A stretch of 64,000 bases of DNA, from positions 768,001-832,000 of the forward strand of contig CAVVYR010000006.1 in assembly GCA_963752475.1 (NCBI GenBank), in the 5' to 3' direction. Each line of letters starts with the position of its first letter. Position 1 is the first letter of the stretch. Positions 15,841-56,362 of this stretch are shown one piece after another. A model generated the notes under the pieces. That model ran no database searches. It saw only the letters and a program-made list of their open reading frames with translations, and was not told the DNA's origin. A program made the translations under genes and the position numbers. The DNA is from an uncultured Chloroflexia bacterium (GTDB lineage: Bacteria > Chloroflexota > Limnocylindria > Limnocylindrales > CSP1-4).

Positions 15841-15870
15841 GATCAGCCGTGTCACACGGCCATCTGTCGA

Positions 15871-37111: not shown

Positions 37112-37227
37112 CTGCAGTGGCGGTTCCACGCCGACGTTCCGCGGGCGCAGGCACTGCGGTAGGGGCTGACGTACGGACGCGGTGAGACACTTGGTCCGGA
37201 CCGTGCATCTATCCGGGTATGGGGGCA

Positions 37228-37761
37228 ATGGCTGGAACGGTCGATCAGGAGCTGGTCGGGCTCGCCGAGTCAGCGATGGCGGGCGATGAGCTCGCTTTCG
37301 CCCGCATCGTCTCCGGGCTGCACGAGCAGGTCTACTCCATCGCCATGATCGTCTGCCGTGAGCGGACGCTGGCGGAGGAGGCCGAGGCCGCGACGTGGAC
37401 ACAGGTCTGGCGCAAGCTCAGCTCGGTCCGACAGGGCGATCGGTTGCGGCCGTGGGTCGTGGCCATCGCCTTCAACGAGGCCAAGCAGGTCCTGCGAAAG
37501 CGCAGGCGTTGGTTCCGCCACGAAGTCGCGACCGAACCGGTGGAGGCACCCGGTGGGCTCGACCCCGCGACCGGTGTGCCTGGCATCGACCTGCGTCTCG
37601 CGGTGCAGGAGCTCGATCCGGATGACCGGGCGCTGCTGACGATGCGTTACGTGCTGGGCTTCGACGCGACCGAGCTCTCGAGCGCGATGGGCCTGACGCC
37701 GTCTGGCGTCCGTTCACGCCTGGAACGCCTCCTGGCACGCCTGAGACAGGAACTCGAGTGA
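37228..37761 (+). CDS. ECF RNA polymerase sigma factor (pair 1)
   Basis: A..GDE.AF, region 2 W.KL...LRPWV..IA.N, region 4 L...DR.L..RY..G....E....G.VRSRL.R. Confidence 0.88.
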   Translation: MAGTVDQELVGLAESAMAGDELAFARIVSGLHEQVYSIAMIVCRERTLAEEAEAATWTQVWRKLSSVRQGDRLRPWVVAIAFNEAKQVLRKRRRWFRHEVATEPVEAPGGLDPATGVPGIDLRLAVQELDPDDRALLTMRYVLGFDATELSSAMGLTPSGVRSRLERLLARLRQELE

Positions 37762-38957
37762 TGAACGACAAGCAAGCGTTCGAACGGCAACTGGGCGACG
37801 AGCTCCGACGGCAGATCGGAGCCATCCCCGAAGCCAACGCACTCGACGTTGCTCGCTCGCTCGCAGGGCGAGCGCCGGCCGGCCATCCTGTCTCGGGCCT
37901 CGCCTCATCAGTGTCCTTCGGAAGGGGGTTCCCAATGTCAGCAACACTCAAGTTCGTCGCGGGCGCGGCCGTCATCGCCTTGATCGGAGGCGTCCTCGCG
38001 ACCGCGCGCGTGCTGGAGTCGGACCCGGCAACGGTCCCGGGCGCGCCGCTCGAGACCCAGCTCGTGGCGACGTCACAGTGGGAGACGCGTGGCGATCCGG
38101 ACAATCCGCTGCTCTTCGGCAACTCGATCGAGGTGGCCCCGGACGGCAACATCTGGGTCCTGGACGCCAGGGGCGGGTTCCAGATCATCGCGCCCGATGG
38201 TTCCTTCGTCGAGAGCTGGGGCTCTCCCGGCAGTGGCGAGGGCGAGCTGGACTTCGACCGCGAGATCGACAGCCTCTACTACGGAGACATCTCCTTCGCC
38301 CCCGATGGCAGCTTCTACGTTGCGGAGTCGGGCAACCACCGCGTGTCCAAGTTCGATGCCGATCGGGAGTTCGTCATGAGCTGGGGTGGCAAGGGCACCG
38401 AGGATGGGCAGTTCATCGACGTCATCGGCGTCTCGGTCGCTCCGGACGGGAACGTCTACGTCATGGACGACGAACGCTATGAGGTTCAGGTCTTCGATCC
38501 TGAAGGGCAGTTCCTTTTCAAGTTCGCAGGCCCCGGCGACGAGGCGCACAACCTCAAGGATCCCGGCACGCTCGACGTCGATGCCGATGGCACGGTCTTC
38601 GTCGACGACTGGGGCAACAGCCGCATCGTGAAGTACACGGCCGAGGGCGAATACATCGGGGAGTGGGGCGAGCGCGGGATGGGCGATGAGCCATACGCCC
38701 TGATGAACCCGCACGGCGTCGACATCGGCCCCGATGGCCGTGTGTACGTGGCCGACATGCGCAACGATCGCCTGAAGGTCTACGAACGAGACGGCACCTA
38801 TGTGGCGACGTTGGGCGGCGAGTACGGCAGCGATCTCTACGTGGGCAAGCCAGTAGGCGTGGGCGTGGCCGAGGACGGCAGCGTCTACGTCATGCAGTAC
38901 AACGTCAAGAGCCTCGAGAAGATCCACGTCGAGGAGGTCCCGGCCACGGGCGAGTAG
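37758..38957 (+). CDS. Anti-sigma-like membrane protein with NHL-repeat beta-propeller
   Basis: Coupled to the ECF gene (GTGA overlap); short N-domain, TM helix, repeated DG..YV.D..N.RV.KF..G.F...WG. Confidence 0.82.
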   Translation: MMNDKQAFERQLGDELRRQIGAIPEANALDVARSLAGRAPAGHPVSGLASSVSFGRGFPMSATLKFVAGAAVIALIGGVLATARVLESDPATVPGAPLETQLVATSQWETRGDPDNPLLFGNSIEVAPDGNIWVLDARGGFQIIAPDGSFVESWGSPGSGEGELDFDREIDSLYYGDISFAPDGSFYVAESGNHRVSKFDADREFVMSWGGKGTEDGQFIDVIGVSVAPDGNVYVMDDERYEVQVFDPEGQFLFKFAGPGDEAHNLKDPGTLDVDADGTVFVDDWGNSRIVKYTAEGEYIGEWGERGMGDEPYALMNPHGVDIGPDGRVYVADMRNDRLKVYERDGTYVATLGGEYGSDLYVGKPVGVGVAEDGSVYVMQYNVKSLEKIHVEEVPATGE

Positions 38958-38974
38958 AAGCGCGTCGCCGACGC

Positions 38975-39010
38975 GAGCGACGCCACGTCGATGGGCGACG
39001 GGCGTCGCTC
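38975..39010 (+). terminator. Hairpin after the NHL gene
   Basis: GAGCGACGCC...GGCGTCGCTC inverted repeat. Confidence 0.5.
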
Positions 39011-39044
39011 CTTAGGACGCCCTGCTGCCGGATGGGCAGGAAGA

Positions 39045-39071
39045 AGCCCCGCCGGGAATGCCGGCGGGGCT
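39045..39071. terminator. Intrinsic terminator
   Basis: AGCCCCGCCGG-gaatg-CCGGCGGGGCT, flanked by AAGA and CTT. Confidence 0.75.
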
Positions 39072-39108
39072 CTTGCGCTGGGGCCGTACTAAGCGTGGAG
39101 CGAGGGTA

Positions 39109-39978: not shown

Positions 39979-40003
39979 GATGGTTGGCTCCCTTCCGAAG
40001 TCG

Positions 40004-40789: not shown

Positions 40790-40856
40790 GCTGGTTCCTC
40801 CACACAACGTGTCCGCGTGCCCGGCGGCCGGGGGTTGGGCTTCATGCCCTGCAATC

Positions 40857-40872
40857 ATCGATTATCGACGAT
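40857..40872. promoter_or_regulatory. Third copy of the putative GntR operator
   Basis: ATCGATTATCGACGAT, 15/16 identical to 22972-22987. Confidence 0.65.
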
Positions 40873-40995
40873 GTCAGCCTAGATGTCTTGCTCCGAGACG
40901 AATTCGGGTGCATCGTGGAGTCGAATCGCGTGCCGCGGGCGCCATTGGTAGTAGAGGGCGCACGAAGGCTGCGTTCGGATGTCGGGATCGGGGGC

Positions 40996-41556
40996 ATGGA
41001 TACCGACCTGGTGACACGAGCTCAGGCAGGGGACCGAAGCGCGTTCGCGCAGATCGCGGACGAAGTGCTCGACCGTTTCCTGGCCATCGCACATCGCATC
41101 CTTCGCGATGGGGCCATGGCCGAGGATGCGACCCAGGCAGCGCTGCTCAGCCTGTGGCGGGATTTGCCCCGGCTGCGCGAGCCCGACCGTTTCGGCGCGT
41201 GGTCGACGCGGCTGCTGGTGAATGCCTGCTACTCGGAGGCCCGACGCGCCCGGCGCTGGCTGCCGAACCTGCCGCTCGAGGCTGTGCCTGAACCGATCGC
41301 CCCTGATGAATTCGGCGCCGTCGCCGACCGAGACGCGCTCGATCGGGCCTTCCACGATGTTCCCGTCGACCAGCGGGCGGTCATCGTCCTGCACCACTAC
41401 GTCGGCATGCCCATCGAGACCGTCGCGCAGACTCTCGACATCCCGCCCGGCACGGTCCGCTCGCGCATGCACCGCGGGATGACCACGCTCCGCCGGGCCA
41501 TGGAAGCCGATGTCCGACCGAATCATCGAGTCGTTCGACAGGAGGCCACGAGATGA
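40996..41556 (+). CDS. ECF sigma factor (pair 2)
   Basis: MDTDLV.RAQ.GD..AF, AEDATQ, WRDLPRLREPDRFGAW, GTVRSRMHR. Confidence 0.9.
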   Translation: MDTDLVTRAQAGDRSAFAQIADEVLDRFLAIAHRILRDGAMAEDATQAALLSLWRDLPRLREPDRFGAWSTRLLVNACYSEARRARRWLPNLPLEAVPEPIAPDEFGAVADRDALDRAFHDVPVDQRAVIVLHHYVGMPIETVAQTLDIPPGTVRSRMHRGMTTLRRAMEADVRPNHRVVRQEATR

Positions 41557-42320
41557 CGCACGACCGTGACCTCGACGACAGGGTCCGCACCTGGCTCGAC
41601 GAGCCGCCGCCCGGTCCGCCCGATCGCGACGCCGTCTACGCCCGAGTGCTCGACCGCCTACCAGAGACCCATCAACGCCGGCACTGGTGGCCATTCCAGT
41701 GGAACCCTTTCGCCGCAGGCGCGACGCGTAGCGCCGACGCGAACGGACCACGCCCACAAGGGAGGTCCAGAACCATGTTGAACCCAGTCCGCGCGGTGGT
41801 GCTCGTCGCCGCGCTCGCGCTCGCCAGCAGCTTCGCGATGGTGACGGAGGTGGCTGCGCCGGGGCCGATCGTTCCGGGCGCGGAGGCACCGGGCGAGGCC
41901 ATCGCGCACGTCGTTGGGCAGACAAGTGGCCAACGCGAGATCGCCGAGGGTGAGATGCAGGTCACAGACCGCGCCATCGAATGGCGAGGGATGGTGGCCG
42001 AGTGGGATGTGACAGCGGACGACCCGCGCTTGAGCGGCGTGATGACGGCCGAATATGCCCTTGACAACCTCATGGGCGTTGCCGGGGCGGCGGCCCTGGC
42101 CGGGACGCAGACGATCAGCAACGCCGATGGCGAATGGTCGGGGACGGTGGTCGGAGTCGGCGTGCCGGACACGAACGACATCCAGTTCCAGTCGGTCCTC
42201 ACAGGATCGGGAGCCTATGACGGACTGACGGCCGTGGTCCGCGCCGACAACGCCGAGAACGTGCTCGTCTACGAGTTCGAGGCGGTCGTCTTCCCAGGTT
42301 CATTGCCAGGCAGCGAGTAG
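41553..42320 (+). CDS. Anti-sigma-like membrane protein with beta-rich extracellular domain
   Basis: ATGA overlap; N-domain W..E...LP.T.QRR..W, TM helix, DDPRLSG...LTGSGAYDGLTAV. Confidence 0.8.
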   Translation: MTHDRDLDDRVRTWLDEPPPGPPDRDAVYARVLDRLPETHQRRHWWPFQWNPFAAGATRSADANGPRPQGRSRTMLNPVRAVVLVAALALASSFAMVTEVAAPGPIVPGAEAPGEAIAHVVGQTSGQREIAEGEMQVTDRAIEWRGMVAEWDVTADDPRLSGVMTAEYALDNLMGVAGAAALAGTQTISNADGEWSGTVVGVGVPDTNDIQFQSVLTGSGAYDGLTAVVRADNAENVLVYEFEAVVFPGSLPGSE

Positions 42321-42330
42321 GCGCGCTCTC

Positions 42331-42365
42331 GAATGCCCGCGGGCCATCCAGGCTCGCGGGCATTC
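42331..42365 (+). terminator. Hairpin terminator
   Basis: GAATGCCCGCGGGCC-atcca-GGCTCGCGGGCATTC followed by TT. Confidence 0.7.
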
Positions 42366-42458
42366 TTCGATTCGAGGGACCCAGAACGCTAGCGTGCCCG
42401 TCTTACCATGTAGAGGCGCAGCAACACAGCGAGGCGCCCAAGGGCACTTTGAGGGGGA

Positions 42459-43019
42459 ATGGACACCGACCTCGTGCTTCGGGCCCAGGACGGCGACGAG
42501 ATCGCGTTCGCACGCCTGGCCGACGGCGTATACGGCCGCCTGCAGCAGGTGGCCTACCGCATCCTGCGGGACCCCGAGCTGGCTCGCGACGCATCCCAGC
42601 AGGCGGCCCTCTCGATGTGGCGCCACCTGCCGGAGCTCCGAGACCCCACCCGTTTCGAGGCCTGGTGCTATCGCCTCTGCGTCAATGCGTGCCACGAGGA
42701 GTCGCGGAAGCGCAGACGCCGCCTCCCTGAGACCGAGCTGAAGCCGTGGCACGAGCCCACGGTACGTGACGAGTACCAGCGTCTCATCGATCACGACCAA
42801 CTGGAACGCGCGTTCCGGCGTCTGTCATTCGAGCACCGGACGGTCCTGGTGCTGCATCACTACCTGGGGATGTCGGTAGACGAGGTCGCGACCACCCTTG
42901 ACACCCCGCTCGGAACCGTCAAGTCCCGCATGAACCGAGCGCTCCGACAGTTGCGTCGGCTCCTTGCGGCCGATGCCGCCCCGCCGCTTGCGATGAACCG
43001 ACAGGAGGTCACCCGATGA
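42459..43019 (+). CDS. ECF sigma factor (pair 3)
   Basis: Paralog of pair 2; WRHLPELRDPTRFEAW, GTVKSRMNR. Confidence 0.9.
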   Translation: MDTDLVLRAQDGDEIAFARLADGVYGRLQQVAYRILRDPELARDASQQAALSMWRHLPELRDPTRFEAWCYRLCVNACHEESRKRRRRLPETELKPWHEPTVRDEYQRLIDHDQLERAFRRLSFEHRTVLVLHHYLGMSVDEVATTLDTPLGTVKSRMNRALRQLRRLLAADAAPPLAMNRQEVTR

Positions 43020-43729
43020 CGATCGGACACGACCTCGAGCACCGTCTCGACAGTTGGATGCAGGAAAACGCGAGCGTGCCCGACGACCTCGCCGAGGTCC
43101 TCGCGAAGCTGCCCGAGACACCACAGCGACACCATCGATGGTCGATCAGCCTCACCGATCTCACAGGGAGGACACGAAGCATGTTCACAGCCACACGAGT
43201 GGCCGCGTTCGTCACTATCTTCACGCTAGGAGCGACGTCTGCGCTCATCATTGCGCCGCAAGAGGAGTCGGAGCCGGTCACGGTCCCCGCAGCGGAGGCG
43301 CCCTCCCTGGACGACATGGCCCGGGTCACCTGGCATGCGTGGATGTCGAAGAACGACCCCGCCAGCGCGAGTGTGACCCAGACGGAGTACGGAGAGCTGA
43401 TCGAGGGTGGTGTCGCGGAGTTCGACATCGACGCGAGCGACGATCGCCTGTCCGGCCCAGCGGAGTTTCACATCAATTCGATGTACTTCGAGCCGGCCGA
43501 CGGGCAGTACCCGGCCCAGGTATTCGTTGGCAGCGTGACCATCGAGGCTGAGGAGGGCATGTGGGAGGGCTCCTTCGTGGCCCTGGACTATCCGGGCACC
43601 CCTGACGGCGAGAGCCAACACATCCTGACGGGCACCGGCGCCTACGAGGGCCTGACGGCTGTGATGACCACGCGCGACGACGTGACCTCGGGGCTGATCT
43701 TCCCGGGCGAGCTACCCGAACTGCCGTAG
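43016..43729 (+). CDS. Anti-sigma-like membrane protein, beta-rich domain
   Basis: LPETPQR, TM helix, DDRLSG...LTGTGAYEGLTAV...FPGELP. Confidence 0.8.
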   Translation: MTIGHDLEHRLDSWMQENASVPDDLAEVLAKLPETPQRHHRWSISLTDLTGRTRSMFTATRVAAFVTIFTLGATSALIIAPQEESEPVTVPAAEAPSLDDMARVTWHAWMSKNDPASASVTQTEYGELIEGGVAEFDIDASDDRLSGPAEFHINSMYFEPADGQYPAQVFVGSVTIEAEEGMWEGSFVALDYPGTPDGESQHILTGTGAYEGLTAVMTTRDDVTSGLIFPGELPELP

Positions 43730-43740
43730 TTCTGCCCACA

Positions 43741-43778
43741 GAGAGACGCCCGCGGGACTTCCTCCGCGGGCGTCTCTC
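43741..43778. terminator. Bidirectional hairpin between convergent anti-sigma genes
   Basis: GAGAGACGCCCGCGG-gacttcct-CCGCGGGCGTCTCTC, 15-bp perfect stem. Confidence 0.82.
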
Positions 43779-43822
43779 ACGTCCAGGCCCGGAGTCTCGG
43801 GCTCCAGGCCTGGCTCGCTTCG

Positions 43823-45235
43823 TCAGCTCTCCAGATGCATTCGCTGCATCGCCGCCGAGCCGGTCTCCGTCTCCGAGGCTTCGCCAGTGACCTGGTGCCG
43901 GGTCTCGACGGTGAACTCGATGGTGGCGCTCTGGTGAGCCTCGTCCATCTGCAGGTCGCCGTAGAGCGTCGAGTTGCCGCGCTTGACCACATCGGGCCGC
44001 GGGTCGCTGTCGTAGTAGTCGATGACCACGGACGCGCTATCGGGTCCGGTGGGCAGCCAGTTGCCCACGCCGACGCCTCGGTAGGGATCGATCGTGAGCA
44101 GGGTGCCGTCGGCATGGATGGCCGTCGTGACCGAGGGTCCGTCCTCGTGCTCCTCGACCCACAGGCTGCCCAGGCTGGGCCACCAGGCCGGGTCGACGGT
44201 CGCGGCGTCCGGCTCCGGTTGTGGCTCCGCCGGCGCCCAGTCCGTGAAGCCGTTCGAGTCGCCGTAGCGGTTGGTTGCGACTCCGGTCTCCGGGTCGATG
44301 CTGACCTCGGCGACCAAGGGCAGGGCAGCAGGATCGTCGCTTGCGAACCAGGCCGTCATGATGCCGTGGTGCTCGTCGGGCTCGGCATACAGTCCGACAC
44401 CGGGGCCGACCCACGAGTTGATGCTCACCCAGGTGCCGTCCGAATGCTCGAGGTTCTGGTTGGGTCGTCCGCCGTAATCCTCGTGCGTCACGCCCAATTC
44501 GTCCGCCCTGTGCAAGTCGATGCCGATCCTGGGCTGCCAGCCGGCATCGGGCGGCGTGACCGTCTCGGCTTCGGGCGGCATCGGCGCCATCTTCTTCCGC
44601 TCCGCCGTAGAGGTGATGATGCCGAAGCTGTTCTCGTCGTAGGTCAGGGTCATGTGGTCACCGGCCTCGTCGAGTTCACCGATGAAGCGGAGCTCGGCGG
44701 TGCCGGGCTCGAGGTAGATGTAGGAGCTATCCGTGCCGGTGAAGCCGAGCTCGGCGACGAGGGAGTGGTCGCCCAGCGGCCTCCACTCCCCGAGGCCGAT
44801 CCCCAGCTCGCTGTTGACGCCCGTTGCGATGCCGTCGCCATGGAAGACGTAGTAGGTGGCCGCTTCGCCGGCATCTCGCTCGAGCCAGATGCTGCCCGGA
44901 GCGTTCTCAGGCGAGAGTGGGGCGGAAGCGCGCTCCTCTTGGCCGACGTTGAGCGCGAGCGAGCCGCTCAGCGCGATGACGGCGATGACGGCCACGATCC
45001 GTGTGGCAGTGACCATGTTCGGGTACCTCCAGTGGTGGAGCGCCCTGCCGGAACCGGGGCTACGCGTCACGCCGGGACCGAAAGGGCGCCAGTCGAGTGG
45101 CCGCAGCCACCGGTGTCTGCGCTGAGGTGTGTTCGGGAGCTGCGCGAGCACGCGGTCCAGGCCGCGGTCATCGAGCTCCGTGGGTTCTTGCATCCAGTCG
45201 TGCACGACGCGTGCCGCTTCTCGCTCGGTGGTCAT
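43823..45235 (-). CDS. Anti-sigma-like membrane protein with three internal repeats
   Basis: LPNTPQRRHRW N-domain, TM helix, three H.DG......G.G.G repeats. Confidence 0.78.
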   Translation of the reverse strand: MTTEREAARVVHDWMQEPTELDDRGLDRVLAQLPNTPQRRHRWLRPLDWRPFGPGVTRSPGSGRALHHWRYPNMVTATRIVAVIAVIALSGSLALNVGQEERASAPLSPENAPGSIWLERDAGEAATYYVFHGDGIATGVNSELGIGLGEWRPLGDHSLVAELGFTGTDSSYIYLEPGTAELRFIGELDEAGDHMTLTYDENSFGIITSTAERKKMAPMPPEAETVTPPDAGWQPRIGIDLHRADELGVTHEDYGGRPNQNLEHSDGTWVSINSWVGPGVGLYAEPDEHHGIMTAWFASDDPAALPLVAEVSIDPETGVATNRYGDSNGFTDWAPAEPQPEPDAATVDPAWWPSLGSLWVEEHEDGPSVTTAIHADGTLLTIDPYRGVGVGNWLPTGPDSASVVIDYYDSDPRPDVVKRGNSTLYGDLQMDEAHQSATIEFTVETRHQVTGEASETETGSAAMQRMHLES

Positions 45236-45783
45236 CGCGCCGCTCCTTCGGCCAGGGCCGCGGGGCTCGGCTCTGCGAGGGCTTGACGCATGTTGGCGAG
45301 GGCCCGATGGAGCCGCGAGTTGACGGTGCCGATCGGTACGTCGAGGGCCTCCGCGATGGCGTCGAGCTGCAGGTCGAGGTGGTAGCGCAGCACGAGCACG
45401 ACTCGGTGGTCGATCGACAGCGCGGCGAAACCGCGTTCCAGTTGCTCACGATCGAGGATCCGGCCGAAGTCATCGGGAGCGACAGGTTCCTTGGGTGCTT
45501 GCGAGCCCACGACGGGCAGCATGCGCTTGCGTCGCCGGAACTCCGCGTGACAGGCGTTGACGAGGAGACGGTGGGACCAGGCTTCGAAGCGATCGGGGTC
45601 GCGTAGTTGCGGCAGGTCGCGCCACATCAGCAGGACTGCCTGCTGGGTCGCGTCCTCGGCCGCTGGCCGGTCGCGCAGGATCCTGAAGGCGACCTGGTGC
45701 AGCCGCCCATACACCGCGTCGGCCAGCATGGCGAATGCGTGCTGGTCCCCGTTCCGAGCGTGGATCACGAGCTCTGTGTCCAT
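45232..45783 (-). CDS. ECF sigma factor (pair 4)
   Basis: MDTELVI.AR.GD..AF, WRDLPQLRDPDRFEAW, GTVNSRLHR. Confidence 0.9.
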   Translation of the reverse strand: MDTELVIHARNGDQHAFAMLADAVYGRLHQVAFRILRDRPAAEDATQQAVLLMWRDLPQLRDPDRFEAWSHRLLVNACHAEFRRRKRMLPVVGSQAPKEPVAPDDFGRILDREQLERGFAALSIDHRVVLVLRYHLDLQLDAIAEALDVPIGTVNSRLHRALANMRQALAEPSPAALAEGAAR

Positions 45784-45909
45784 CCCCCCACCGCTCATGG
45801 CGCTGGCGTCTGAGTCGCGCCTCTGAATCGTATGGCGCACGGCAAGCGCGAAACCTTCCATCCAAGAGAACCGTCGGGTCAGCTGCGGCGCATCGGTGCC
45901 GAAACCCTG

Positions 45910-46524
45910 CTAGTCGAGCATCCCTCGCTCGACCACGAAGTCGGCGACCTTGTCCACGCCGTCGCCACCTCGAAGGTTGGTGAAGACGTACGGGCGGTCC
46001 TGGCGCACGGAGATGGCGTCCCGCTCCATGTTCATGAGCGAGGCGCCCACGGCCGGCGCCAGGTCGCTCTTGTTGATCACCAGGAGGTCGCTGTCGGTGA
46101 TGCCCGGGACCCCGCGCCGCGTCGCCTTTTCACCGGCGGCCACGTCGATGACGTAGATGACGAGGTCGGTCAGCTCCGGGTCGAAGGTCGAGGAGCCCAG
46201 ATCGTCTCCACCTTCGATGAAGATCGCATCGAGCCCCTGGTGGCGGGTGATGAGCGCATCCACAGCGGCTAGGTTCTGCGTCGCATCGTCCCCCACGTCG
46301 GTGTGGGGACAGTTGCCGGCGTCGAGCCCGACGATCCGATCCTCAGTCAACGCTCCACGTCGCACCAGCGCCCGTGCGTCCTCGTGGGCGTTGACGTCGT
46401 TCGTGACCACCGCCACCGAGTAGCGATCGCTCAGATGCGAACAGAGCCCAGCCACCAGCGTGGTCTTGCCCGAGCCGATCGGTCCGCCGATGCCGACGCG
46501 CAGCGTCGGGCGGGACTCGCTCAC
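45910..46524 (-). CDS. ureG: Urease accessory GTPase UreG (divergent)
   Basis: GGPIGSGKT, AVVTND, CPH, IYVIDVAAGEK..R.G.PGI..SDLLVINKSDLAP.VGA.L. Confidence 0.88.
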   Translation of the reverse strand: MSESRPTLRVGIGGPIGSGKTTLVAGLCSHLSDRYSVAVVTNDVNAHEDARALVRRGALTEDRIVGLDAGNCPHTDVGDDATQNLAAVDALITRHQGLDAIFIEGGDDLGSSTFDPELTDLVIYVIDVAAGEKATRRGVPGITDSDLLVINKSDLAPAVGASLMNMERDAISVRQDRPYVFTNLRGGDGVDKVADFVVERGMLD

Positions 46525-46970
46525 CCCTGGGAGGCCAGGTCGTGATCGTGGGCGTGGTCCTTCGTGCCGCGTTCAGGCTCGAAGGGAACCTCTTCGACAG
46601 TGACCTGTGCTCCGAGCTTGCGTACGAGATCGTCGATGGCGCGATCGTGACGGTAGCGGATGAAGCCGGGGCCGACCTGCGTGCGAACATGCCGATTGCC
46701 CAGGTGGTACGCGACGCGCGCGAGCAGCATCGCATCAGAGGAGGCGATCGTCGAGACGTCCTCGGGCGCGGCTTCGACCGCGATGATGCGTTCGTCGGAG
46801 GCCTTCATGAGGTCGCCGTCGAGCAGGACCGTTCCGCGAGGCAGGAACAAGCCCACCTCCCGGCCGCTCGCGGTGGTGGCCTTGAGCCGGCTCTTGCGTC
46901 TTAGCTCCCAGGTCAGCGCCAATCGGTCGCTCGGTTCGCCCGCGGTCGCGAGTTCGTGGACCTCCAGCAT
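46521..46970 (-). CDS. ureE: Urease accessory Ni chaperone UreE
   Basis: R.KSR....G..GL.LPRG..L.DGD, AYHLGNRH, PFEPE, His-containing tail; SD GAGGAGG. Confidence 0.88.
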   Translation of the reverse strand: MLEVHELATAGEPSDRLALTWELRRKSRLKATTASGREVGLFLPRGTVLLDGDLMKASDERIIAVEAAPEDVSTIASSDAMLLARVAYHLGNRHVRTQVGPGFIRYRHDRAIDDLVRKLGAQVTVEEVPFEPERGTKDHAHDHDLASQG

Positions 46971-47101
46971 CGTCTGTGCCACCTCCTCAACTGCCATCGA
47001 TCTCGACGGTAGCCGAGGGGCCGGTTCGGATGACGACCTAGAGCGGTGACCTTTCCGTTGCCCTTGTGTTGCGAGTCCGGCCTGAGGTGTTCTCGCCGAC
47101 A

Positions 47102-47117
47102 TAGAACGGATGTACTA
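47102..47117. promoter_or_regulatory. LexA (SOS) box upstream of lhr
   Basis: TAGAAC-GGAT-GTACTA, near-palindrome of the GAAC-N4-GT(T/A)C type, overlapping the -35 region of TAGGAT (47135-47140). Confidence 0.65.
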
Positions 47118-47149
47118 TTCGTGCACGGAGGTGTTAGGATGCCGGTCCC

Positions 47150-50100
47150 GTGCCCCGACGCCGCAAGCCCGCTCCGACCGACCCGTTCGCCGCCTTCGAA
47201 GCGCCCACGCGCGAGTGGTTCGGGTCCTCGTTCGACCGGCCCACCGACGCGCAACGGCAGGGCTGGCCGGCCATCGCGGGAGGTCAGCACACGCTGATCT
47301 GCGCGCCCACCGGCAGCGGCAAGACGCTCGCCGCCTTCCTTTGGTGTCTGGACCGCCTGAAGCACGAACCCGTGCCGTCGGAGCCCAAGGCTCGGCTGCG
47401 CGTCCTGTACGTGTCGCCCCTGAAGGCGCTCGTGCATGACGTCGACCGCAACCTGCGTTCGCCCTTGGCCGGGATCGGGCTGGCGGCGGAGCGGCTAGGT
47501 ACGCCCACGCGTGAGGTGCAGGTCGGTATGCGCACGGGTGACACACCCGCGCAGGAGCGGCGCGCCTTCGGCAAGAAGCCGCCGGACATCCTCGTGACCA
47601 CGCCGGAGTCGCTCTATCTCATCCTGACCAGCCAGGCACGCGAGGCCCTGCGCAACGTGGAGTGGATCATCGTCGATGAGATCCACGCGTTGGCCGGGAC
47701 CAAGCGCGGTGCCCATCTGGCCCTATCGCTGGAGCGGTTGGAATCCATGACCGACCGTCCACCGCAGCGGATCGGGCTCTCGGCCACGCAGCGACCGCTC
47801 TCGGCCGTGGCCGCATACCTCGGAGGGCGGCAGCCGGGCGACGGTGAGAGCACGGCCGCGCCTCGGCCTGTGACGATCGTCGATGCGGGCGTACGCAAGG
47901 AGCTCGATCTGTCGGTCGTGGTGCCGGTGGAGGACATGGGCCGTCTGGGTGAGGTCATCCCGCTCGAGGAGACACCCGGTGGCCCGATGGATGGGCCGGC
48001 GACGCGGACCAGCATCTGGCCCTCTGTCTACCCCCGCGTACTGGAGCTCATCCGCGAGCACCGCAGCACGATCGTCTTCACCAATAGCCGGCGACTGTCG
48101 GAGCGCCTGGCGCAGAGCCTCAACGAGCTCGCAGAAGAGGACATCGCCCGAGCGCACCATGGCTCCATCGCACGCGAGCAACGGCTGATCATCGAGGAGC
48201 AGCTGAAGCAAGGCAAGCTCCCGTGCATCGTGGCCACGTCATCGCTCGAGCTGGGTATCGACATGGGCGCGGTGGACCTGGTCATCCAGGTGGAGTCGCC
48301 GCTGTCGGTCTCGCGCGGCCTGCAGCGTGTGGGGCGTGCCGGCCATCGGGTCGGCGAGCCCTCGCGCGGCGTGATCTTCCCCAAGTACCGCGGTGACCTG
48401 CTGGAGGCGGCGGTGGTCACGCGCATGATGCGAGACGGCGCCATCGAGCCCACGACCGTGCCCCACAACCCGCTCGACGTGCTGGCTCAGCAGATCGTGG
48501 CCACGACCCTCGACCGGGACTGGCCCATCGACGAGCTCTACGCGCTCGTGCGGCGGGCGGAGAACTTCGCCGATCTTGGCCGGGACACGTTCGAGGCCGT
48601 GCTGGGAATGCTTGCCGGCCAATACCCCGCTGACGAGTTCGCCGAGCTCAAGCCGCGGATCGTCTGGGACCGGGTGGCCGGCAGCGTGGCGGCGCGGAAG
48701 GATGCGCGCACCGTGGCCGTGACCTCGGGCGGGACGATCCCCGATCGCGGCCTGTTCCCCGTCTTCCTCTCGGACGACGCTGCCGAGACCGGCGGTCCGG
48801 CGAGGGCGCGCGGTCGGGGAGGGGGTCGCCGCGTCGGGGAGCTGGACGAAGAGATGGTCTACGAGGCGCGCACCGGTGAGGTCGTGCTGCTCGGTGCCAG
48901 CGCCTGGCGCATCGAGGCGATCGAGCACGACCGGGTGTTGGTCTCGCCGGCACCGGGCGAGTCGGGCAAGGTGCCCTTCTGGAAGGGTGACGGCGTGGGC
49001 CGGCCGGTCGAGCTCGGACGTGCGCTGGGACAGTTCACCCGGGAGATCTCGGAGCAGGCCGGTGCCAAGCGCGGTGGGCGCGCAAGGGCCATAAAGCGAC
49101 TGCGCGACGAGCACGACCTCGACCAGATGGCGGCCGAGAACGTGCTCTCGTACCTCGACGAGGAACGTGAGGTCACCGGCGCGCTGCCCACAGATACGAC
49201 GGTGGTGCTCCAGCGGTTCCGTGACGAGCTCGGTGACTGGCGAGTCTGCCTCTTGACGCCGTTCGGGGCGCGAGTGCATGCGCCGTGGGCGCTGGCCATC
49301 GAAGCCCGTCTGCAGGCGTCGCTGGGGGTGGACGTGAAGCCGCTCTGGTCCGATGACGGCATCGTGCTTCGCCTGCCCTCCACGGACGGGTCCTACGAGC
49401 CGGGTGAGGGCCTCGAGTCGATGGCTCAGCAGGCGGAGGCGGCGGTGCTCATCGCTGCCGACGACATCGAGGAGCTGGTGACCGAGTCGGTCGGCAGCTC
49501 GGCGCTCTTCTCGAGCCGCTTCCGCGAGAATGCGGCCCGAGCGCTGTTGCTGCCTCGCCGGCGCCCCGGCCAGCGGACGCCGCTGTGGCAGACGCGGCAA
49601 CGGGCCTCTCAGCTATTGGCCGTGGCCAGCCGCTACGGCTCCTTCCCGATCATCCTCGAGACCTACCGTGAGGTCCTCCGGGACGTCTTCGACCTGCCCG
49701 CGCTCCGGGGCATCCTGGCCTCGATCGAACGCCGGGAGATCCGGGTCGTGAGTGTGGAGACATCGCGCGCATCGCCCTTCGCGTCGTCCTTGCTGTTCGA
49801 CTACATCGCGACCTACATGTATGAAGGTGACGCGCCGCTGGTCGATCGGCGCGCACAGGCGCTGACGCTCGATCGCGACCTGCTCCGGGAGTTGCTCGGA
49901 GCTGAGCAGCTGCGTGACCTGCTCGATGCGGAGGCCCTGGCCGAGCTGGAGCTCGAGCTGCAGGCGCTGACCGAGGAACGGGCGGCCGGCTCGGTCGACC
50001 AGGTACAGGACCTGCTGCGGCGCCTCGGTGACCTGAGCGACGACGAGGTCGCGGCTCGGGTGCGCGGCGCTGATGCCAAGGCTCGCCGCGCGGTCGCCCA

Positions 50101-51832
50101 GGAGTGGCTCGAGGCGCTGGTGGCAGACCGGCGAGCGGTCTCGCTACGCGTGGCTGGTGAGGTCCGCTGGATCGCGGCCGAGGACGTCGGGCGCTACCGG
50201 GATGGCGTGGGTGCATCCCCGCCGGTCGGCGTGGCCGAGGGCTTCCTGGCGCCCACGAGCGACGCGCTCGGGTCGATGCTGGCTCGGTGGGCCCGGACGC
50301 ACGGTCCGTTCCACACCGAAGGGCCCGCCGACCGCTGGCAGCTACCTCGCGGAGTCGTTGAGACCGCCCTGGAGGGCCTGATGGCCGACGGTGTGCTGCT
50401 GCGGGGTGAGTTCCGACCCGGTGGCGTGGAGCGCGAATGGTGCGACCCGGAGGTACTGCGCCTCGTGCGTCGCCGTTCGCTGGCTCGGCTGCGACGCGAG
50501 ATCGAGCCGGTGGAGCCGACGGCCCTGGCTCGGTTCCTGCCGGCCTGGCAAGGCGTAGGTGCGGGGGCCGCGGGCATCGACAGGCTGGCGGAGGCCATCG
50601 GCCAGCTCGAGGGTGTGGCGCTACCGGCGAGTGTGCTGGAGCGTGACGTCCTTCCAGCGCGGGTCCAGGGCTACAGCCCCCAGATGCTCGACGAGCTGGG
50701 CGCCGCCGGCGAGGTCGTTTGGGTCGGTGCCGGGAGCCTGGGCAAGGATGATGGCCGCATCGCCTTGTATCGGCCCGATCGCCTTGCGCTGCTGCTGCCG
50801 ACACGCGTCGGAGAGGACCAGCCGGGCGAGGACGCCGGGACCTGGCTGCACGAGGCGTTGCGCCAGCACCTGTCCGCGCGTGGCGCCTCGTTTCATCGTG
50901 AGTTGCTGGGTGCGGCCCTCACTGCCGCTGCGGCCGGTGAGCGCCGACGTCCAGGAGAGCGAGAGATGCTCGATGCGCTGTGGGACCTCGTCTGGGCCGG
51001 TGAGGTCACCAACGACACGTTCCTGCCGTTGCGGGCGCTGCGCTGGCCGCGTCGAGGGGGAGGGCGGCCTGCAGCCCGGGCGCGATCGCGGATGGGTACC
51101 CGCATGGGACCGCCGGAGGCGGCGGGGCGCTGGTCGCTGGTGGAGGAGACGCTGCGGACGGCGGTCGCACTCGCCGACGGCAAGGAGCCGACGGGCACAG
51201 GACAGCGTGCCGCCCTCGCGGCCACGCTCCTCGAGCGCTATGGCGTCGTCACCCGGGACGCCGTCGCCGGTGAGAACGTGCGCGGGGGGTTCGGGGCGGT
51301 CTACCCGGTCTACCGCGAGATGGAGGAGCGCGGACGGGTGCGCCGCGGGTATTTCGTCGAAGGCCTTGGCGGTGCCCAGTTCGCCGTCGCAGGTGCGGTG
51401 GACCGGCTGCGCTCGATGCGTCGCGGCGCCGGCGCAGACTCCAGCGACGACCCCAAGACCGTGCTGCTGGCCGCAACCGACCCGGCCAACCCGTATGGTG
51501 CCGCGCTGGCGTGGCCGCAGGACGGGGTTCGGCACTCGCGGACGCCGAGCCGTTCGGCCGGCGCCTACGTCGTGCTGCACGACGGTGAACCTGTGCTCTA
51601 CCTGGAGCGTGGTGGGAAGTCGCTGCTGACGTTCTCGCCGTTCGATGACGAACGCGTCGGGGGATCGGCCGTCGATGTGCTGCGAACGCTCATCGATGAT
51701 GGACGCGTGAAGCGTCTGCAGCTCGAGCGCGTGGATGGCACGGCCATCGGTGAGTCGCCATCCCGGGAGCGCCTGGCCGCCCTCGGGTTCCGGCAGGCGT
51801 ACCGTGGGTACGTGCTCGGCCCAGTGGGCTAG
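47150..51832 (+). CDS. lhr: Lhr ATP-dependent helicase (long form)
   Basis: APTGSGKT, SPLKAL, TTPES, DEIH, SAT, TSSLELGID and QRVGRAGH motifs; C-terminal RGYFVEGLGGAQFA and ATDPANPYG. Confidence 0.95.
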   Translation: MPRRRKPAPTDPFAAFEAPTREWFGSSFDRPTDAQRQGWPAIAGGQHTLICAPTGSGKTLAAFLWCLDRLKHEPVPSEPKARLRVLYVSPLKALVHDVDRNLRSPLAGIGLAAERLGTPTREVQVGMRTGDTPAQERRAFGKKPPDILVTTPESLYLILTSQAREALRNVEWIIVDEIHALAGTKRGAHLALSLERLESMTDRPPQRIGLSATQRPLSAVAAYLGGRQPGDGESTAAPRPVTIVDAGVRKELDLSVVVPVEDMGRLGEVIPLEETPGGPMDGPATRTSIWPSVYPRVLELIREHRSTIVFTNSRRLSERLAQSLNELAEEDIARAHHGSIAREQRLIIEEQLKQGKLPCIVATSSLELGIDMGAVDLVIQVESPLSVSRGLQRVGRAGHRVGEPSRGVIFPKYRGDLLEAAVVTRMMRDGAIEPTTVPHNPLDVLAQQIVATTLDRDWPIDELYALVRRAENFADLGRDTFEAVLGMLAGQYPADEFAELKPRIVWDRVAGSVAARKDARTVAVTSGGTIPDRGLFPVFLSDDAAETGGPARARGRGGGRRVGELDEEMVYEARTGEVVLLGASAWRIEAIEHDRVLVSPAPGESGKVPFWKGDGVGRPVELGRALGQFTREISEQAGAKRGGRARAIKRLRDEHDLDQMAAENVLSYLDEEREVTGALPTDTTVVLQRFRDELGDWRVCLLTPFGARVHAPWALAIEARLQASLGVDVKPLWSDDGIVLRLPSTDGSYEPGEGLESMAQQAEAAVLIAADDIEELVTESVGSSALFSSRFRENAARALLLPRRRPGQRTPLWQTRQRASQLLAVASRYGSFPIILETYREVLRDVFDLPALRGILASIERREIRVVSVETSRASPFASSLLFDYIATYMYEGDAPLVDRRAQALTLDRDLLRELLGAEQLRDLLDAEALAELELELQALTEERAAGSVDQVQDLLRRLGDLSDDEVAARVRGADAKARRAVAQEWLEALVADRRAVSLRVAGEVRWIAAEDVGRYRDGVGASPPVGVAEGFLAPTSDALGSMLARWARTHGPFHTEGPADRWQLPRGVVETALEGLMADGVLLRGEFRPGGVEREWCDPEVLRLVRRRSLARLRREIEPVEPTALARFLPAWQGVGAGAAGIDRLAEAIGQLEGVALPASVLERDVLPARVQGYSPQMLDELGAAGEVVWVGAGSLGKDDGRIALYRPDRLALLLPTRVGEDQPGEDAGTWLHEALRQHLSARGASFHRELLGAALTAAAAGERRRPGEREMLDALWDLVWAGEVTNDTFLPLRALRWPRRGGGRPAARARSRMGTRMGPPEAAGRWSLVEETLRTAVALADGKEPTGTGQRAALAATLLERYGVVTRDAVAGENVRGGFGAVYPVYREMEERGRVRRGYFVEGLGGAQFAVAGAVDRLRSMRRGAGADSSDDPKTVLLAATDPANPYGAALAWPQDGVRHSRTPSRSAGAYVVLHDGEPVLYLERGGKSLLTFSPFDDERVGGSAVDVLRTLIDDGRVKRLQLERVDGTAIGESPSRERLAALGFRQAYRGYVLGPVG

Positions 51833-51889
51833 TCGTGATTCTCGGGTGTGATGAGAGCGACGCTCGCTATGGCTGACTTGCAGGCAGGC

Positions 51890-52885
51890 TCACGAGACGT
51901 AGATCTTCACATCGATGAAGCCATCGTCGCCCTTGCCGTTGAGCGACAGGCTCAAGTCACGTTCGGGTTTGCTGGGTGAGTCGGCGTCCACGGCGACCTG
52001 GTCTGGCGCGGCTTCGGCCGGGTCGTCGATCAGGAACGATGCGGCCGTGTCACCAGCATCGCGCTCGAAGTAGGTATCGCCGAGGACGGACGCATCGGTG
52101 TACCACTCGTGCTCGCTGCCGGAGGTCGACTCCACGCGGACCACGCTCAGGCTGACGTTGATGCCTGTAGGAGCGACCGTGTGGCTCGTGCCCCAGCTCT
52201 CGAATGTCTGCCGGACGGCCGCGGGGATGATCGCGAACGGGGTCGTGGGGTACTGGCCCATCCTGATGGTGTCGCCCCCACTGACGACACCGTCCTCGTT
52301 GGTGTCGACGATCTCGCTGATCATGATGTCACCGTCGTCCCACTCGTGGTTCGTGTTGACGTCGGCGTAGGCGATGACCAGCGTGGGGGGCTCCGGGGGT
52401 ACGACCAACGGCTTCTCACAGCGCACGACCGGGCCCGAGCCCGTGTTCTGGAAGCAGGTGTCGACACCGATGCCGCCGTCGATGACGTCGTTGCCCAGCT
52501 GCCCCGCCGCGAGGTCCGGTCCGGGTCCCGCGAACAGGCGATCGGGTCCGGGGCCGCCGTAGAGCTTGTCCGCCCCGGCACCACCGATGAGCTTGTCGAT
52601 ACCACCCTGACCCACGAGCCGGTCGTTGCCCGGACCGCCACAGATGAGGTCGTTGCCTCCGCGGCCGAAGACCTTGTCCGCCCCGCCCTTGGCCACGATG
52701 ACGTCACGCTTGCTCGTGCCGATGATGCGATCGGCCTTCCTGGTGCCGACGATGGTGGCGGTCACCCCCTGGCACTTCGGCTTGGCCGCTGACGCTGGGC
52801 TAGCGACGGTGGCCGCGGTCATGGTGGCGAGGAGCGCGGCTGAAGTGAAGAGCGCGATACCTCGGCGAAGTCGAGTGCTGTCCAT
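51890..52885 (-). CDS. Secreted RTX/hemolysin-type Ca-binding repeat protein
   Basis: Signal peptide, C.G..ATIVGT, repeated GGxGxD nonapeptides, DxNxDG loops in the C-terminal half. Confidence 0.8.
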   Translation of the reverse strand: MDSTRLRRGIALFTSAALLATMTAATVASPASAAKPKCQGVTATIVGTRKADRIIGTSKRDVIVAKGGADKVFGRGGNDLICGGPGNDRLVGQGGIDKLIGGAGADKLYGGPGPDRLFAGPGPDLAAGQLGNDVIDGGIGVDTCFQNTGSGPVVRCEKPLVVPPEPPTLVIAYADVNTNHEWDDGDIMISEIVDTNEDGVVSGGDTIRMGQYPTTPFAIIPAAVRQTFESWGTSHTVAPTGINVSLSVVRVESTSGSEHEWYTDASVLGDTYFERDAGDTAASFLIDDPAEAAPDQVAVDADSPSKPERDLSLSLNGKGDDGFIDVKIYVS

Positions 52886-53050
52886 GGCGCAAGGATCCTC
52901 CCTCGTCGGCCCGCGCCGGGGTCGGGCGCGTGGGCATGCGCGAAAGATACCGCCTCCGACTCGCGATAGCGAGTGATGGTCGTCGCCCGCACCCACGCGT
53001 GACGTACCGTTGCGTCCAACCGCTGAACAGCAGTCCAGGAAGGGACCTCG

Positions 53051-53365
53051 ATGACCGTCATCCGGATCAACGCCATCTCCGTGCCTGAGGCAGGCGGGGA
53101 TGAGCTCGAAGCACGATTCGCCAAACGACTTGGCGCCGTCGATGAGCAGCCCGGTTTTCTGGGCTTCGACCTGCTCAGGCCCACGGGCGAGAACGAACGA
53201 CGTTGGTTCGTGATGACTCGCTGGGAGTCGCAGGAGGCATTCCAGGCTTGGGTCGAGTCCACGGCGTTCCGACACGGCCATGCGCAGTCGGAGGGCGGCG
53301 GCCGGCCCGTGGCCACCGGGTCGGAGCTGCTCGAGTTCGAGGTGGTCCTCTCGAGCGAACGCTAG
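53051..53365 (+). CDS. mhuD: MhuD-like heme-degrading monooxygenase (ABM family)
   Basis: INAI.VP..G.ELE.RFA.R..V...PGFLGF.LLRP....W....F.AW...H...PVATG..LLEFEVVL closely follows the MhuD sequence as I recall it; N7, F23 and R26 present. Confidence 0.8.
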   Translation: MTVIRINAISVPEAGGDELEARFAKRLGAVDEQPGFLGFDLLRPTGENERRWFVMTRWESQEAFQAWVESTAFRHGHAQSEGGGRPVATGSELLEFEVVLSSER

Positions 53366-53386
53366 GCTGCCGGGCAGACCAGGCGG

Positions 53387-54319: not shown

Positions 54320-54366
54320 CCGAAGCATCGTACCGCCGAGCGGCGCAGGCCATAGACTCGTTGCCG

Positions 54367-55549
54367 ATGACGACGACCCCGAGCGCGACGACGCTGGGGC
54401 GGCTGCGCGACGAGGTCCAGCGCCGACTGCCCGACTACCTGACGGACCTCGAGACCATCGTCAACATCGAGTCCGGGTCCTACACCAAGTCCGGCGTCGA
54501 CGAGGTGGCGAACTGGATTGCCGGCCGGCTCGCGAACCTCGGCGCGGCCATCGAATGGGACCGGAACGAGGAACTGGGCGACACCGCGGTGGCCACCCTG
54601 GAGGGCTCCGCCGGTGGGCCGACGATCCTGCTCATCGGCCACACCGACACCGTGTTCGACCCCGGCTTTCTCGCCAAGCGCCCGTTCGGGATCGACCGCG
54701 ACAGGATCGTGGGTCCGGGTGTCAGTGACATGAAGTCGGGCCTGCTCACCGGTCTCTATGCCATCGACGCGTTGCTGACGGTCCTCGACGGCAAGCAGCC
54801 TCCCTTTGGCCGGCTCATCTACATCGTCAACCCGGACGAGGAGATCGGCTCGCCGGCCAGCGTCGATCTCATCGCGAAGTTGGCGCAGGGGGCGGATGCG
54901 GCCTTCGTGATGGAAGCTGCCCGAGCGAACGGGGACATCGTCTCGGCGCGCAAGGGCATGATGCACATCCGGGCCACGATCCAGGGGCGATCGGCCCATG
55001 CCGGCGTCGAGCCGGAGAAAGGCCGCAGCGCGACGCTCGAGGCCGCGCACAAGACCATCGCCCTGCATGCCCTCAACGGACGCTGGTCCGGCGTGTCGGT
55101 CAATGTCGGCGAGATCAAGGGCGGCACACGCCCGAACATCGTGGCCGAGGAGGCCGTGATGACCATCGATATGCGCGCGCGCCTGGCAGTGGAGCAGGAC
55201 GAAGCCGAGGCTGCCATCTACGAGATCCTCGAGTCGTCAGTCGTGCCGGACATCTGCGACCACGATCGAGAAGCTCGCCGGTACCCGCCCGATGGAGAAG
55301 ACCCCGGCATCGGCCGAGCTCGTCGATGCCGCAGTCGCCATCGCCGCCGAGCTGGGGTTCGAGCTGGCCGATGCCGAGACCGGCGGGGGATCGGACGCGA
55401 ACACGACGGCCGCGGTCGGCGCGCCCTCGGTCGACGGGCTCGGGCCGGTGGGCGGCAACGACCACACGCCGCTCGAGTACATCGAGAAGAGCAGCATCGT
55501 CCCGAGGACGACGCTGCTCGCTGCGTTGCTGCTGTCAGTCGACGGCTAG
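54367..55549 (+). CDS. M20 peptidase (carboxypeptidase G2-like), frameshift ~55255
   Basis: GHTDTV, GPGVSDMKSG, DEEIGS and G.SAHAG in the first frame; RPME, GGGSDAN and DGLGP.GG..H..E in the second frame. Confidence 0.85.
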
Positions 55550-55563
55550 AGCGCCTCGAGCGG

Positions 55564-56362
55564 TTACTCCGGCGCCTCGGGAAGCTCGCCTGGGAAGAGA
55601 CCCCTTCGAAGTCCATCCAGAGCCCCCACGTGTCCTGGGACAGTGCTCGTGAGAGCGCGACAGGCCCTCGTAGGCGCCTTCGCCACGAACCGCATGGCGT
55701 AGGTCATCGTCCGGTCCTCGTGGGTGCTCGGTAGCCCCAGTTCGACGTCGACACCCAGTGTCCATCCTCGTTCGGTGAGCGACGGCAGCCGACGTTGCGC
55801 AACACCCCAGTTGGGTCGGCGTCGTACTTGTAGTAGTCGTGGACCGAGTGCATGTTGCCGGTGAAACGGGGGTCGTTGACCATCGACGGGGCAGTTGCGT
55901 AGCGTCTCACCCTCGATGATCGCACGACCCCATCGTTCTCGGGTCGTCCGCCGTATCCGCCGGTGGACTGCACTGCACTCGTGCAGGTGAAGCCGCCGAA
56001 ATCGGCTGGGTCGATGTCGTCCATCCGTGACGGCCCGGGGCCAGAGGGCAGCGTCGCTTCCGTGAGGGGATGGCGATGAAGGTCAGGCTCCCGGCGAGTG
56101 CCAGGATGGCCACCGCGGCCAGCGACGCGTGTGGCTGTGAACATGGATCTGGCATCTCCTTCGTTCGGGGTGTGGCGCCTCCGACGTCGGCGCTACGCGT
56201 CGCGCCGAACCCGAAAGGGAACCACCTGAATGGCCACCAGCGCCGGCGCTGGGGCACAGAGGGGAGTCGATCGATCGTCTGGAAGAGGGTGTGGTCGTCG
56301 AGCGTGGGGGCCGGCTCCGACAGCCACTGCTCGAGCTCGCGCGTCACGTCCCGCTCGTTCAT
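55564..56362 (-). pseudogene. Anti-sigma-like gene (pair 5), multiple frameshifts
   Basis: Fragments MNERDV..LEQWL..LPSVPQRRRWW, MFTATRVA, DPRFTG, GEGAYEGL and FPGELPEAPE* lie in different frames. May be sequencing error. Confidence 0.65.

Follow-up and report, generated by a model that had tools for sequence, protein, structure and literature searches.

A Chloroflexota family of putative anti-sigma genes carries a conserved second Shine-Dalgarno sequence and start codon at the edge of the membrane helix

We analysed a stretch of 64,000 nucleotides (nt) from an uncultured Chloroflexia bacterium of the class Limnocylindria (NCBI GenBank assembly GCA_963752475.1, contig CAVVYR010000006.1, positions 768,001 to 832,000 of the forward strand), hereafter called the window. 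It holds five genes for extracytoplasmic function (ECF) sigma factors, each with a same-strand downstream gene for a single-pass membrane protein, the putative anti-sigma factor. Inside each intact anti-sigma gene lies a second Shine-Dalgarno (SD) sequence followed by a start codon, in frame with the upstream start, and a hydrophobic helix follows directly after the internal Met. Purifying selection acts on the nucleotides of this second SD and start, as seen in many genes from many genomes. The genes probably yield two isoforms, a full anti-sigma factor and, by internal initiation, a headless, N-in, membrane-anchored form of the ectodomain.

A first-pass annotation of the window had reported such a site in all five paralogs, and its coordinates, motifs and codon offsets were all correct. 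In A1 (37758..38957, plus strand; long form 399 amino acids (aa)), the SD GGAAGGGGG (37920-37928; whole site 37920..37937) stands 6 nt ahead of ATG 37935, which lies 59 codons into the gene after the codons GGA AGG GGG TTC CCA; the short-form open reading frame (ORF) would be 37935-38957, and the SD duplex is computed at -14.5 kcal/mol. The other three intact genes have GGAGG-N9-ATG. In A2 (41553..42320, plus strand; 255 aa) the motif occupies 41761..41777 and the ATG at 41775 is 74 codons in, after GGG AGG TCC AGA ACC (short-form ORF 41775-42320; duplex -13.0). In A3 (43016..43729, plus strand; 237 aa) it occupies 43167..43183 and the ATG at 43181 is 55 codons in, after GGG AGG ACA CGA AGC (short-form ORF 43181-43729; duplex -10.9), and the peptide W/G/R-R-T-R-x-M at this site is kept in 13 homologs. 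In A4 (43823..45235, minus strand; 470 aa) it occupies 45014..45030 and the ATG at 45016 is 73 codons in, after TGG AGG TAC CCG AAC (short-form ORF 45016 down to 43823; duplex -10.7). The claim of five paralogs holds for these four intact genes and has to be amended for the fifth copy (55564..56362, minus strand), a remnant with several frameshifts in which AAGGAG (56161-56156) precedes ATG 56144-56142 by 11 nt. As had been noted, that site is out of frame, since the 218 nt from 56362 to 56144 are no multiple of 3. The N-terminus of the remnant resembles intact orthologs in a genome of the same genus (locus L042). The accompanying sigma gene (56359..56947, minus strand) is likewise a frameshifted remnant with split sigma matches, and the fifth pair are pseudogenes.

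The motif is built on a codon that is rare in this organism, as the first-pass annotation had stated: 4.6% of Arg codons are AGG in a crude background set of 2140 genes, defined by ORF length and G+C content at third codon positions (GC3) with no gene finder. The raw count of the bare motif is unremarkable, because the 7 occurrences of GGAGG-N9-ATG in the window (2.82 expected) are reached in 4 of 100 shuffles. What is remarkable is position and frame. GGAGG inside genes of this genome normally falls in the G-GAG-G frame, and at N9 ahead of an internal in-frame ATG it was found in 1/11258 for the other genes of the genome.

The second start is much wider than the five sites first reported, as 111 of 133 family genes in 63 genomes are positive compared with 156 of 1553 helix starts (10%) of other genes in the window's genome under an identical scan. 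In that genome (4.25 Mb, 38 contigs, 88.8% complete by marker genes), 45 ORFs match sigma factors and 34 downstream partner ORFs have an early membrane helix. In 24 of these 34, a start codon stands at the edge of the helix behind an SD whose duplex with the tail of the genome's own 16S rRNA is computed at -7.5 kcal/mol or lower, although one TTG and one GTG case among the 24 may be spurious; a duplex of -7 or better is found at 7% of 4000 internal ATGs taken as background. The feature is therefore family-wide and not peculiar to this cluster. Ten sigma-linked partners of other kinds lack it, so it is no general habit of the organism either. A family profile built from 19 N-terminal segments, that of A2 included, matched 10 of 12 other genomes of the genus and 68 of 301 genomes of the class, with 32 of 91 in one family (f1) and 35 of 103 in another (f4); the 68/301 and 35/103 tallies include three unpublished genomes (G138, G172 and G305), which enter no other count. 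There was no match in 106 genomes of three other families of the class, and in a phylum-wide sample all 13 matching genomes out of 401 belonged to f1 or f4. These genome sets are samples, and absence elsewhere means not found in the genomes searched. The resulting family set comprises 133 non-redundant segments from 63 genomes, 18 genera and two families. It was scanned for ATG, GTG or TTG, the only codons accepted, at most 28 codons before the helix core and with an SD duplex of -7.4 or better. The 111 positives (104 ATG, 5 GTG, 2 TTG) come from 50 of the 63 genomes, 16 of the 18 genera and both families, and their start codon mostly lies 0-6 codons ahead of the helix core.

Codon choice within the motif bears on whether a peptide or a nucleotide sequence is being conserved. 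At the protein level the positives have Arg at position -4 relative to the internal start in 93 of 111, Met at 0 and Lys or Arg at +5 in 88, a pattern that would be recognisable at the membrane interface. It could be that only this peptide matters, a basic residue, three further residues and a Met at the cytoplasmic face of the helix that serve topology (the positive-inside rule) or recognition by a protease, and that the likeness to an SD is incidental. Such a motif predicts ordinary Arg codons, with CGC and CGG together at about 73%; yet AGG encodes 90 of the 93 Arg residues at -4 (AGA 2, CGC 1). The expectation of the first-pass annotation that homologs would keep the Met and GGAGG, with AGG and not CGN at this codon, is thereby borne out. 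The AGR share of Arg codons at -6 to -3 is 76%, versus 8.6% elsewhere in the same segments and 5.7% genome-wide. At -5 the codons are TGG (33), CGG (27), GGG (18) and GAA (9); the four residues W, R, G and E are chemically unlike, yet the GG (or GA) before AGG is retained, and its loss is not tolerated. There are 73 different four-residue contexts among the positives, and in 89 positives AGG and the start are spaced by 9 nt. Where Arg is replaced, other codings keep the purine run: Gly-Gly (GGA GGT), Lys-Glu (AAG GAG), Lys-Gly or Glu-Gly-Asp (GAA GGA GAC). Among 31 orthologs from several genera, third positions are invariant in the motif, with an entropy of 0 across TGG CCG GCG YGG AGG compared with 1.5-1.9 at other conserved four-fold sites, and at codon -5 the first position alternates between C and T (R or W, 15 each) with GG fixed. 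We give a purely peptide-level motif very little credence.

The synonymous constraint in these 31 orthologs (loci L050-L147) extends past the SD into TGG CCG GCG, codons -8 to -6, which the SD does not explain; this upstream part may act as a standby site or belong to a structure. It is also one of two observations that would suit another kind of RNA element, namely an arm of a structure or a binding site governing mRNA stability or translation of the whole gene, with the ATG a part of the element that is unused as a start. The second is the presence of strongly folded windows on both sides of the site, at about -28 and +35 to +44. No partner sequence was identified, the CCG GCG constraint belongs to a single orthologous subfamily, and what all subfamilies have in common is the SD and start, at a spacing that real genes use. 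An element of this sort is quite improbable.

Several properties of the internal site resemble those of a real initiation region. Ahead of the first start codons of genes in this genome, GGAGG is spaced by 4-12 nt, most often 7, and the 9-nt spacing of the internal site falls inside this range. The median SD strength is -10.5 at the internal site versus -10.3 at the first start. In 40-nt windows over the 111 sequences, mean folding energy has its weakest values (-6.9 to -8.0) for centres from -1 to +17, compared with -11 to -16 on either side; amino acid composition may contribute to this minimum of structure. A signal acting on elongation would also account for some of the pattern: pairing of GGAGG with the anti-SD of the translating ribosome, or the rare AGG, could pause the ribosome just before the helix is made and allow time for the head to fold or capture its sigma factor or for membrane targeting. 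The fixed place of the motif just ahead of a helix in a membrane protein fits a pause well, and rare codons with synonymous conservation would be equally expected from it. However, a pause needs no start codon, whereas of the 79 in-frame GG|AGG motifs that the 133 segments contain ahead of the helix, 77 are followed exactly 9 nt on by a start codon (ATG 75, GTG 1, TTG 1; other 2). The seven non-ATG codons at the site in the positives are all GTG (5) or TTG (2), a pattern partly built into a scan that accepted start codons only. Nor would a rare-codon effect require GG in the codon before AGG, and a structural minimum centred on the ATG marks initiation sites. SD-induced pausing has itself been disputed by later ribosome-profiling work, which also counts against it here. 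We regard a pause signal as unlikely.

By comparison of sequences, the segment upstream of the internal start is coding, as the first-pass annotation had taken it to be. It is conserved as protein with free third positions, both in the 31 orthologs and across genera and the two families. In 80 of the positives the alignment begins at position 1 of the model; all 80 have ATG as their first start, and in 78 this ATG overlaps a stop codon, that of the sigma gene. The first start has an SD of its own, and the two starts lie 32-88 codons apart, linker included. Public gene calls give the long form in 13 of 13 aligned A3 orthologs. These observations bear on the opposite view, that the internal ATG is the sole true start and the upstream frame an annotation artefact, so that the genes would encode ordinary anchored or secreted proteins with no anti-sigma domain. 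Long open frames do arise easily at 68% G+C, the N-terminal segments of A1-A4 match no Pfam or NCBIfam model, and the internal site is a strong initiation region. Against this stand the conservation of the head, its overlap with the sigma stop and the calls of public gene finders, and the head is in frame with the helix in all family matches, a figure affected by selection bias as the hidden Markov model (HMM) required both parts. The modelled contacts with sigma described below point the same way. That the internal ATG is the only start appears to us highly improbable.

A structural model of a complex between the sigma factor S3 (chain 1) and residues 1-55 of A3 supports binding of the head to sigma regions 2 and 4. 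Its score was 0.71, compared with 0.00 for the best of three controls, although the score may owe something to solved sigma/anti-sigma complexes. Of 80 solved complexes 58 score this high, as do 2 of 110 mismatched pairs, counts that are approximate because custom alignments were used. Agreement between runs is 92% of contacts or more, and the predicted local confidence (pLDDT) of the partner is at least 69. In the model, A3 residues 4-40 lie against sigma residues 10-59 and 111-169, which belong to regions 2 and 4. All modelled contact residues are upstream of the internal Met (Met56, followed by the helix), so the short form would lack the predicted sigma-binding part.

Two kinds of head occur in the family. 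Type I follows the pattern W...P-x-T-P-Q-R-R-x-W-W-P, and type II, present in A1 (FERQL...) and in loci L076-L086, the pattern M-x-D-x-x-x-F-E-R-Q...G-P-x-x-P-V-D. The two are unrelated, and both are joined to the same module of SD, Met and helix, which suggests that heads have been exchanged while the second start was retained. Downstream of the start the juxtamembrane consensus is M-F-S-A-x-K/R, followed by ...ALFGGFLL; the helix core A-L-F-G-G-F-L-L is conserved (e.g., window 37953-38010; columns 113-136 of the N-terminal alignment). A Gly-Gly within a helix is a helix-weakening feature of the kind that intramembrane proteases need. The ectodomains vary between paralogs and include an NHL beta-propeller in A1 (E 2.4e-23), other propeller repeats and right-handed beta-helix or NosD-like domains. 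A2 and A3 are predicted with confidence to have an all-beta ectodomain (pLDDT 83-96 over residues 100-237). Foldseek matches for that of A3 are weak, the best being 8of7_A (E 3.6e-3, TM-score 0.62 on the target), and they suggest a small beta-barrel like that of the AbyU/Cyc15/DUF3224 group, to which we assign no function. The first-pass annotation had described the residues after each internal Met as signal-peptide-like and the short form as exported or anchored. A hydrophobic stretch is indeed present after each Met; however, it is long, windows of 14 and 19 residues at the helix remain strongly hydrophobic, and by eye no cleavage motif follows. On this visual assessment the stretch is probably a signal anchor and not a cleavable signal peptide, which favours membrane anchoring over export.

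The sigma genes of the four intact operons are S1 (37219..37761, plus strand), S2 (40888..41556, plus strand, with an uncertain 5' end), S3 (42459..43019, plus strand) and S4 (45232..45861, minus strand). All four match Pfam Sigma70_r2 and Sigma70_r4_2 (regions 2 and 4) and exceed the cutoff of the ECF sigma70 model TIGR02937 (60.5 versus 42.9 for S1), and none reached the cutoff of an ECF subfamily model. In each pair the sigma stop overlaps the start of the partner as ATGA or GTGA (ATGA for A2 and A4), with a GGAGG-type SD ahead. Two promoter-like patterns, recognised by eye, recur upstream of sigma genes of this genome, e.g., ahead of window 37219, 42459 and 45861 (minus strand). The first consists of GATGGAAC, then TACCCTnTAGAGG and a hairpin-like GGACCG...CGGTCC leader; the second, GACACTT-N17-ATCTA, precedes the type II group at a distance of only some 10 nt from the ATG. 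Such motifs were seen upstream of sigma genes only, and no systematic promoter search was made for the short form. Between the operons lie genes for an Lhr helicase, a metallo-beta-lactamase-fold protein, a short-chain dehydrogenase, UreE, a CobW/HypB/UreG-type GTPase, an RTX-repeat protein, a GT87 glycosyltransferase and an M20 peptidase. Among them, the Lhr-type helicase has 1560 aa (47150-51832, plus strand), urease-accessory UreE and the GTPase occupy 45910-47102 (minus strand), and the protein with RTX calcium-binding repeats is encoded at 51890-53281 (minus strand). The GTPase is likely UreG because it adjoins UreE. For these intervening genes no connection with the sigma operons is evident.

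Three RNA libraries, labelled as salt marsh and sediment, yielded contigs that are 95-99% identical to parts of the S2/A2 and S3/A3 operons (window 40800-45900), for example contig X13 at 43153-43433 and 42579-42729 and contig X8 at 41594-41744. The three runs contain 5-7% of the sampled words. This hints at transcription of relatives in nature, with DNA carry-over a possible source of the contigs.

Some HMM matches to the helix part only looked like headless genes; the clear cases carry the shorter, second type of head (FERQ...GP..PVD), followed by the SD and start, and were rejected as candidates. Two loci outside the window, both on genome contig C36, differ from this. One is a decaying copy (reverse strand, about 15200-16900 in reverse-complement coordinates) in which the sigma gene has an internal stop and the partner head a stop at codon 7, with GGGAGG-N9-ATG and a 216-aa ORF of helix plus ectodomain intact; it is possibly a natural gene for the short form only, a young pseudogene or an assembly error. 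At the other (locus L087, C36:44700-46000, minus strand), a sigma ORF cut in region 4 runs in frame into ...SPMWRFWS-MFTATK and the helix. The head is missing there and TGG AGG-N9-ATG is retained.

We envisage a cassette that would read, in order, sigma, then head, second start plus helix, and variable sensor. Initiation at the first region, a GGAGG-type SD with an ATG overlapping the sigma stop, would give the full-length protein, in which a short head of about 40-50 aa that binds sigma in the cytoplasm is followed by a linker that varies, a single membrane helix and an ectodomain that likewise varies. Initiation at the second region, usually NGG AGG, 9 nt and ATG (rarely GTG or TTG) exactly at the cytoplasmic edge of the helix, would give a short isoform that keeps some five residues in the cytoplasm (M-F-S-A-x-K/R) along with the helix and ectodomain and could not hold sigma. 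Single-pass anti-sigma factors such as RseA, RsiW and RsiV are commonly removed by sequential proteolysis, of the ectodomain and then of the helix. With its conserved Gly-Gly, the helix would be a suitable substrate for an intramembrane protease, and regulated proteolysis may operate here as well. It is possible, if rather doubtful, that the short and full-length forms compete for the extracytoplasmic signal, or for the proteases by which the anti-sigma factor is destroyed; a headless copy might alternatively pair with the full-length form. With both forms made from one presumably sigma-dependent operon, a threshold would be set and activation damped by feedback. Equally tentatively, each operon of the family may co-produce the anti-sigma factor and a headless copy of the sensor that titrates ligand or site-1/site-2 proteases, or forms mixed oligomers, so that the ratio of the two starts sets the activation threshold and provides negative feedback. 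If so, the headless copy would be a design principle undescribed for any sigma/anti-sigma system. The decoy, shuttle or effector role that the first-pass annotation proposed for the short form is speculation.

A number of points weigh against the production of two isoforms or limit its reach. Initiation at the second site, and the accumulation of both proteins, are what we infer from sequence; the long and short isoforms of the first-pass annotation have thus fared well in computational tests, while the existence of two proteins stays at the level of prediction. In 22 of the 133 family members, mostly of distant subfamilies, the feature is lacking, and some of them keep the Met without an SD, so the second start would be dispensable for the basic function of the family. 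The 111 positives were picked by SD strength, which makes codon counts within them partly circular; the count of 77 in 79 motifs and the third-position entropy profile do not depend on that selection. The family sequences share ancestry, and their counts lack phylogenetic independence. The fixed spacing of R-x-x-x-M is also compatible with a peptide motif. The RNA-library contigs, which give no starts, strands or levels, cannot tell the isoforms apart. Finally, no stand-alone gene beginning at the internal site after an untranslated upstream region was found in this genome or among 12 candidate loci, the decaying copy being the one exception. Each of the competing explanations nevertheless fails on the coupling of SD and start, on codon choice or on the conservation of the head, and two isoforms by internal initiation remain the reading that we favour.

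ECF sigma/anti-sigma pairs are a main route by which bacteria sense the outside, and current models take each anti-sigma gene to make a single protein, produced in step with sigma. If the sensor half is also made alone, this would change thinking on stoichiometry, thresholds and proteolytic activation, and it would provide a rare case of an internal start that is conserved over more than 100 genes and recognisable from sequence alone. For annotators, both starts are real candidates. Full-text literature searches, with subscription-only papers outside their reach, found no anti-sigma gene with an internal start, in agreement with the first-pass annotation, which knew of no earlier description, and the terms 'anti-sigma' and 'sigma factor' are absent from a 2026 review on N-terminal proteoforms in bacteria. 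Each of the two parent kinds is known; within the reach of these searches, what is new is their combination and its conservation throughout the family.

The nearest parallel for the internal start is E. coli arcB, where an internal in-frame start gives ArcB-C, verified by western blot and SD mutation according to Meydan et al. (bioRxiv 10.1101/520783), who also name infB, clpB and mrcB as older cases. As in arcB, an SD-like sequence and an in-frame start stand at a domain boundary inside a membrane signalling gene, are conserved among species and lead one to expect a truncated isoform; the conservation screen outlined there, combining anti-SD hybrid energy with a nearby in-frame start, is also similar to ours. 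However, ArcB-C is a soluble C-terminal phosphotransfer domain, whereas the product predicted here would keep the helix and sensor ectodomain and lose the cytoplasmic output domain. The present site further differs in recurring in dozens of paralogs per lineage and in being known from sequence alone. Alternative starts within an ECF module have a precedent in SigE of Mycobacterium tuberculosis, for which isoforms from alternative translation starts are reported (PMC10027907), but SigE is a sigma factor and not an anti-sigma factor.

Among anti-sigma factors, class I members (RseA, RsiW, RskA) have a four-helix domain averaging about 101 aa, with a zinc subtype marked by H-x3-C-x2-C, as summarised in PMC7406223. 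The present family shares with them the sigma-then-anti-sigma operon, the N-in single-pass topology and, in the model, sequestration of sigma by covering regions 2 and 4. However, its head is only about 40-50 aa long and matches no class I model: the four proteins of the window gave no Pfam or NCBIfam match to a class I domain and contain no H-x3-C-x2-C. In size and modelled binding mode the head rather resembles class II, a likeness of length and predicted contacts. The class II protein CnrY of Cupriavidus metallidurans binds CnrH through a short two-helix domain of less than 50 aa, with the first helix on region 4 and the second on region 2 (PMC7406223). The present proteins likewise combine a very short cytoplasmic domain, below 50 aa, with one membrane helix, and our model places their first helix against region 4 of sigma, with a later segment against region 2. 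They differ from CnrY, for which PMC7406223 reports no internal start, in their large and varied ectodomains, which range from NHL and other propellers to a right-handed beta-helix and a small beta-barrel.

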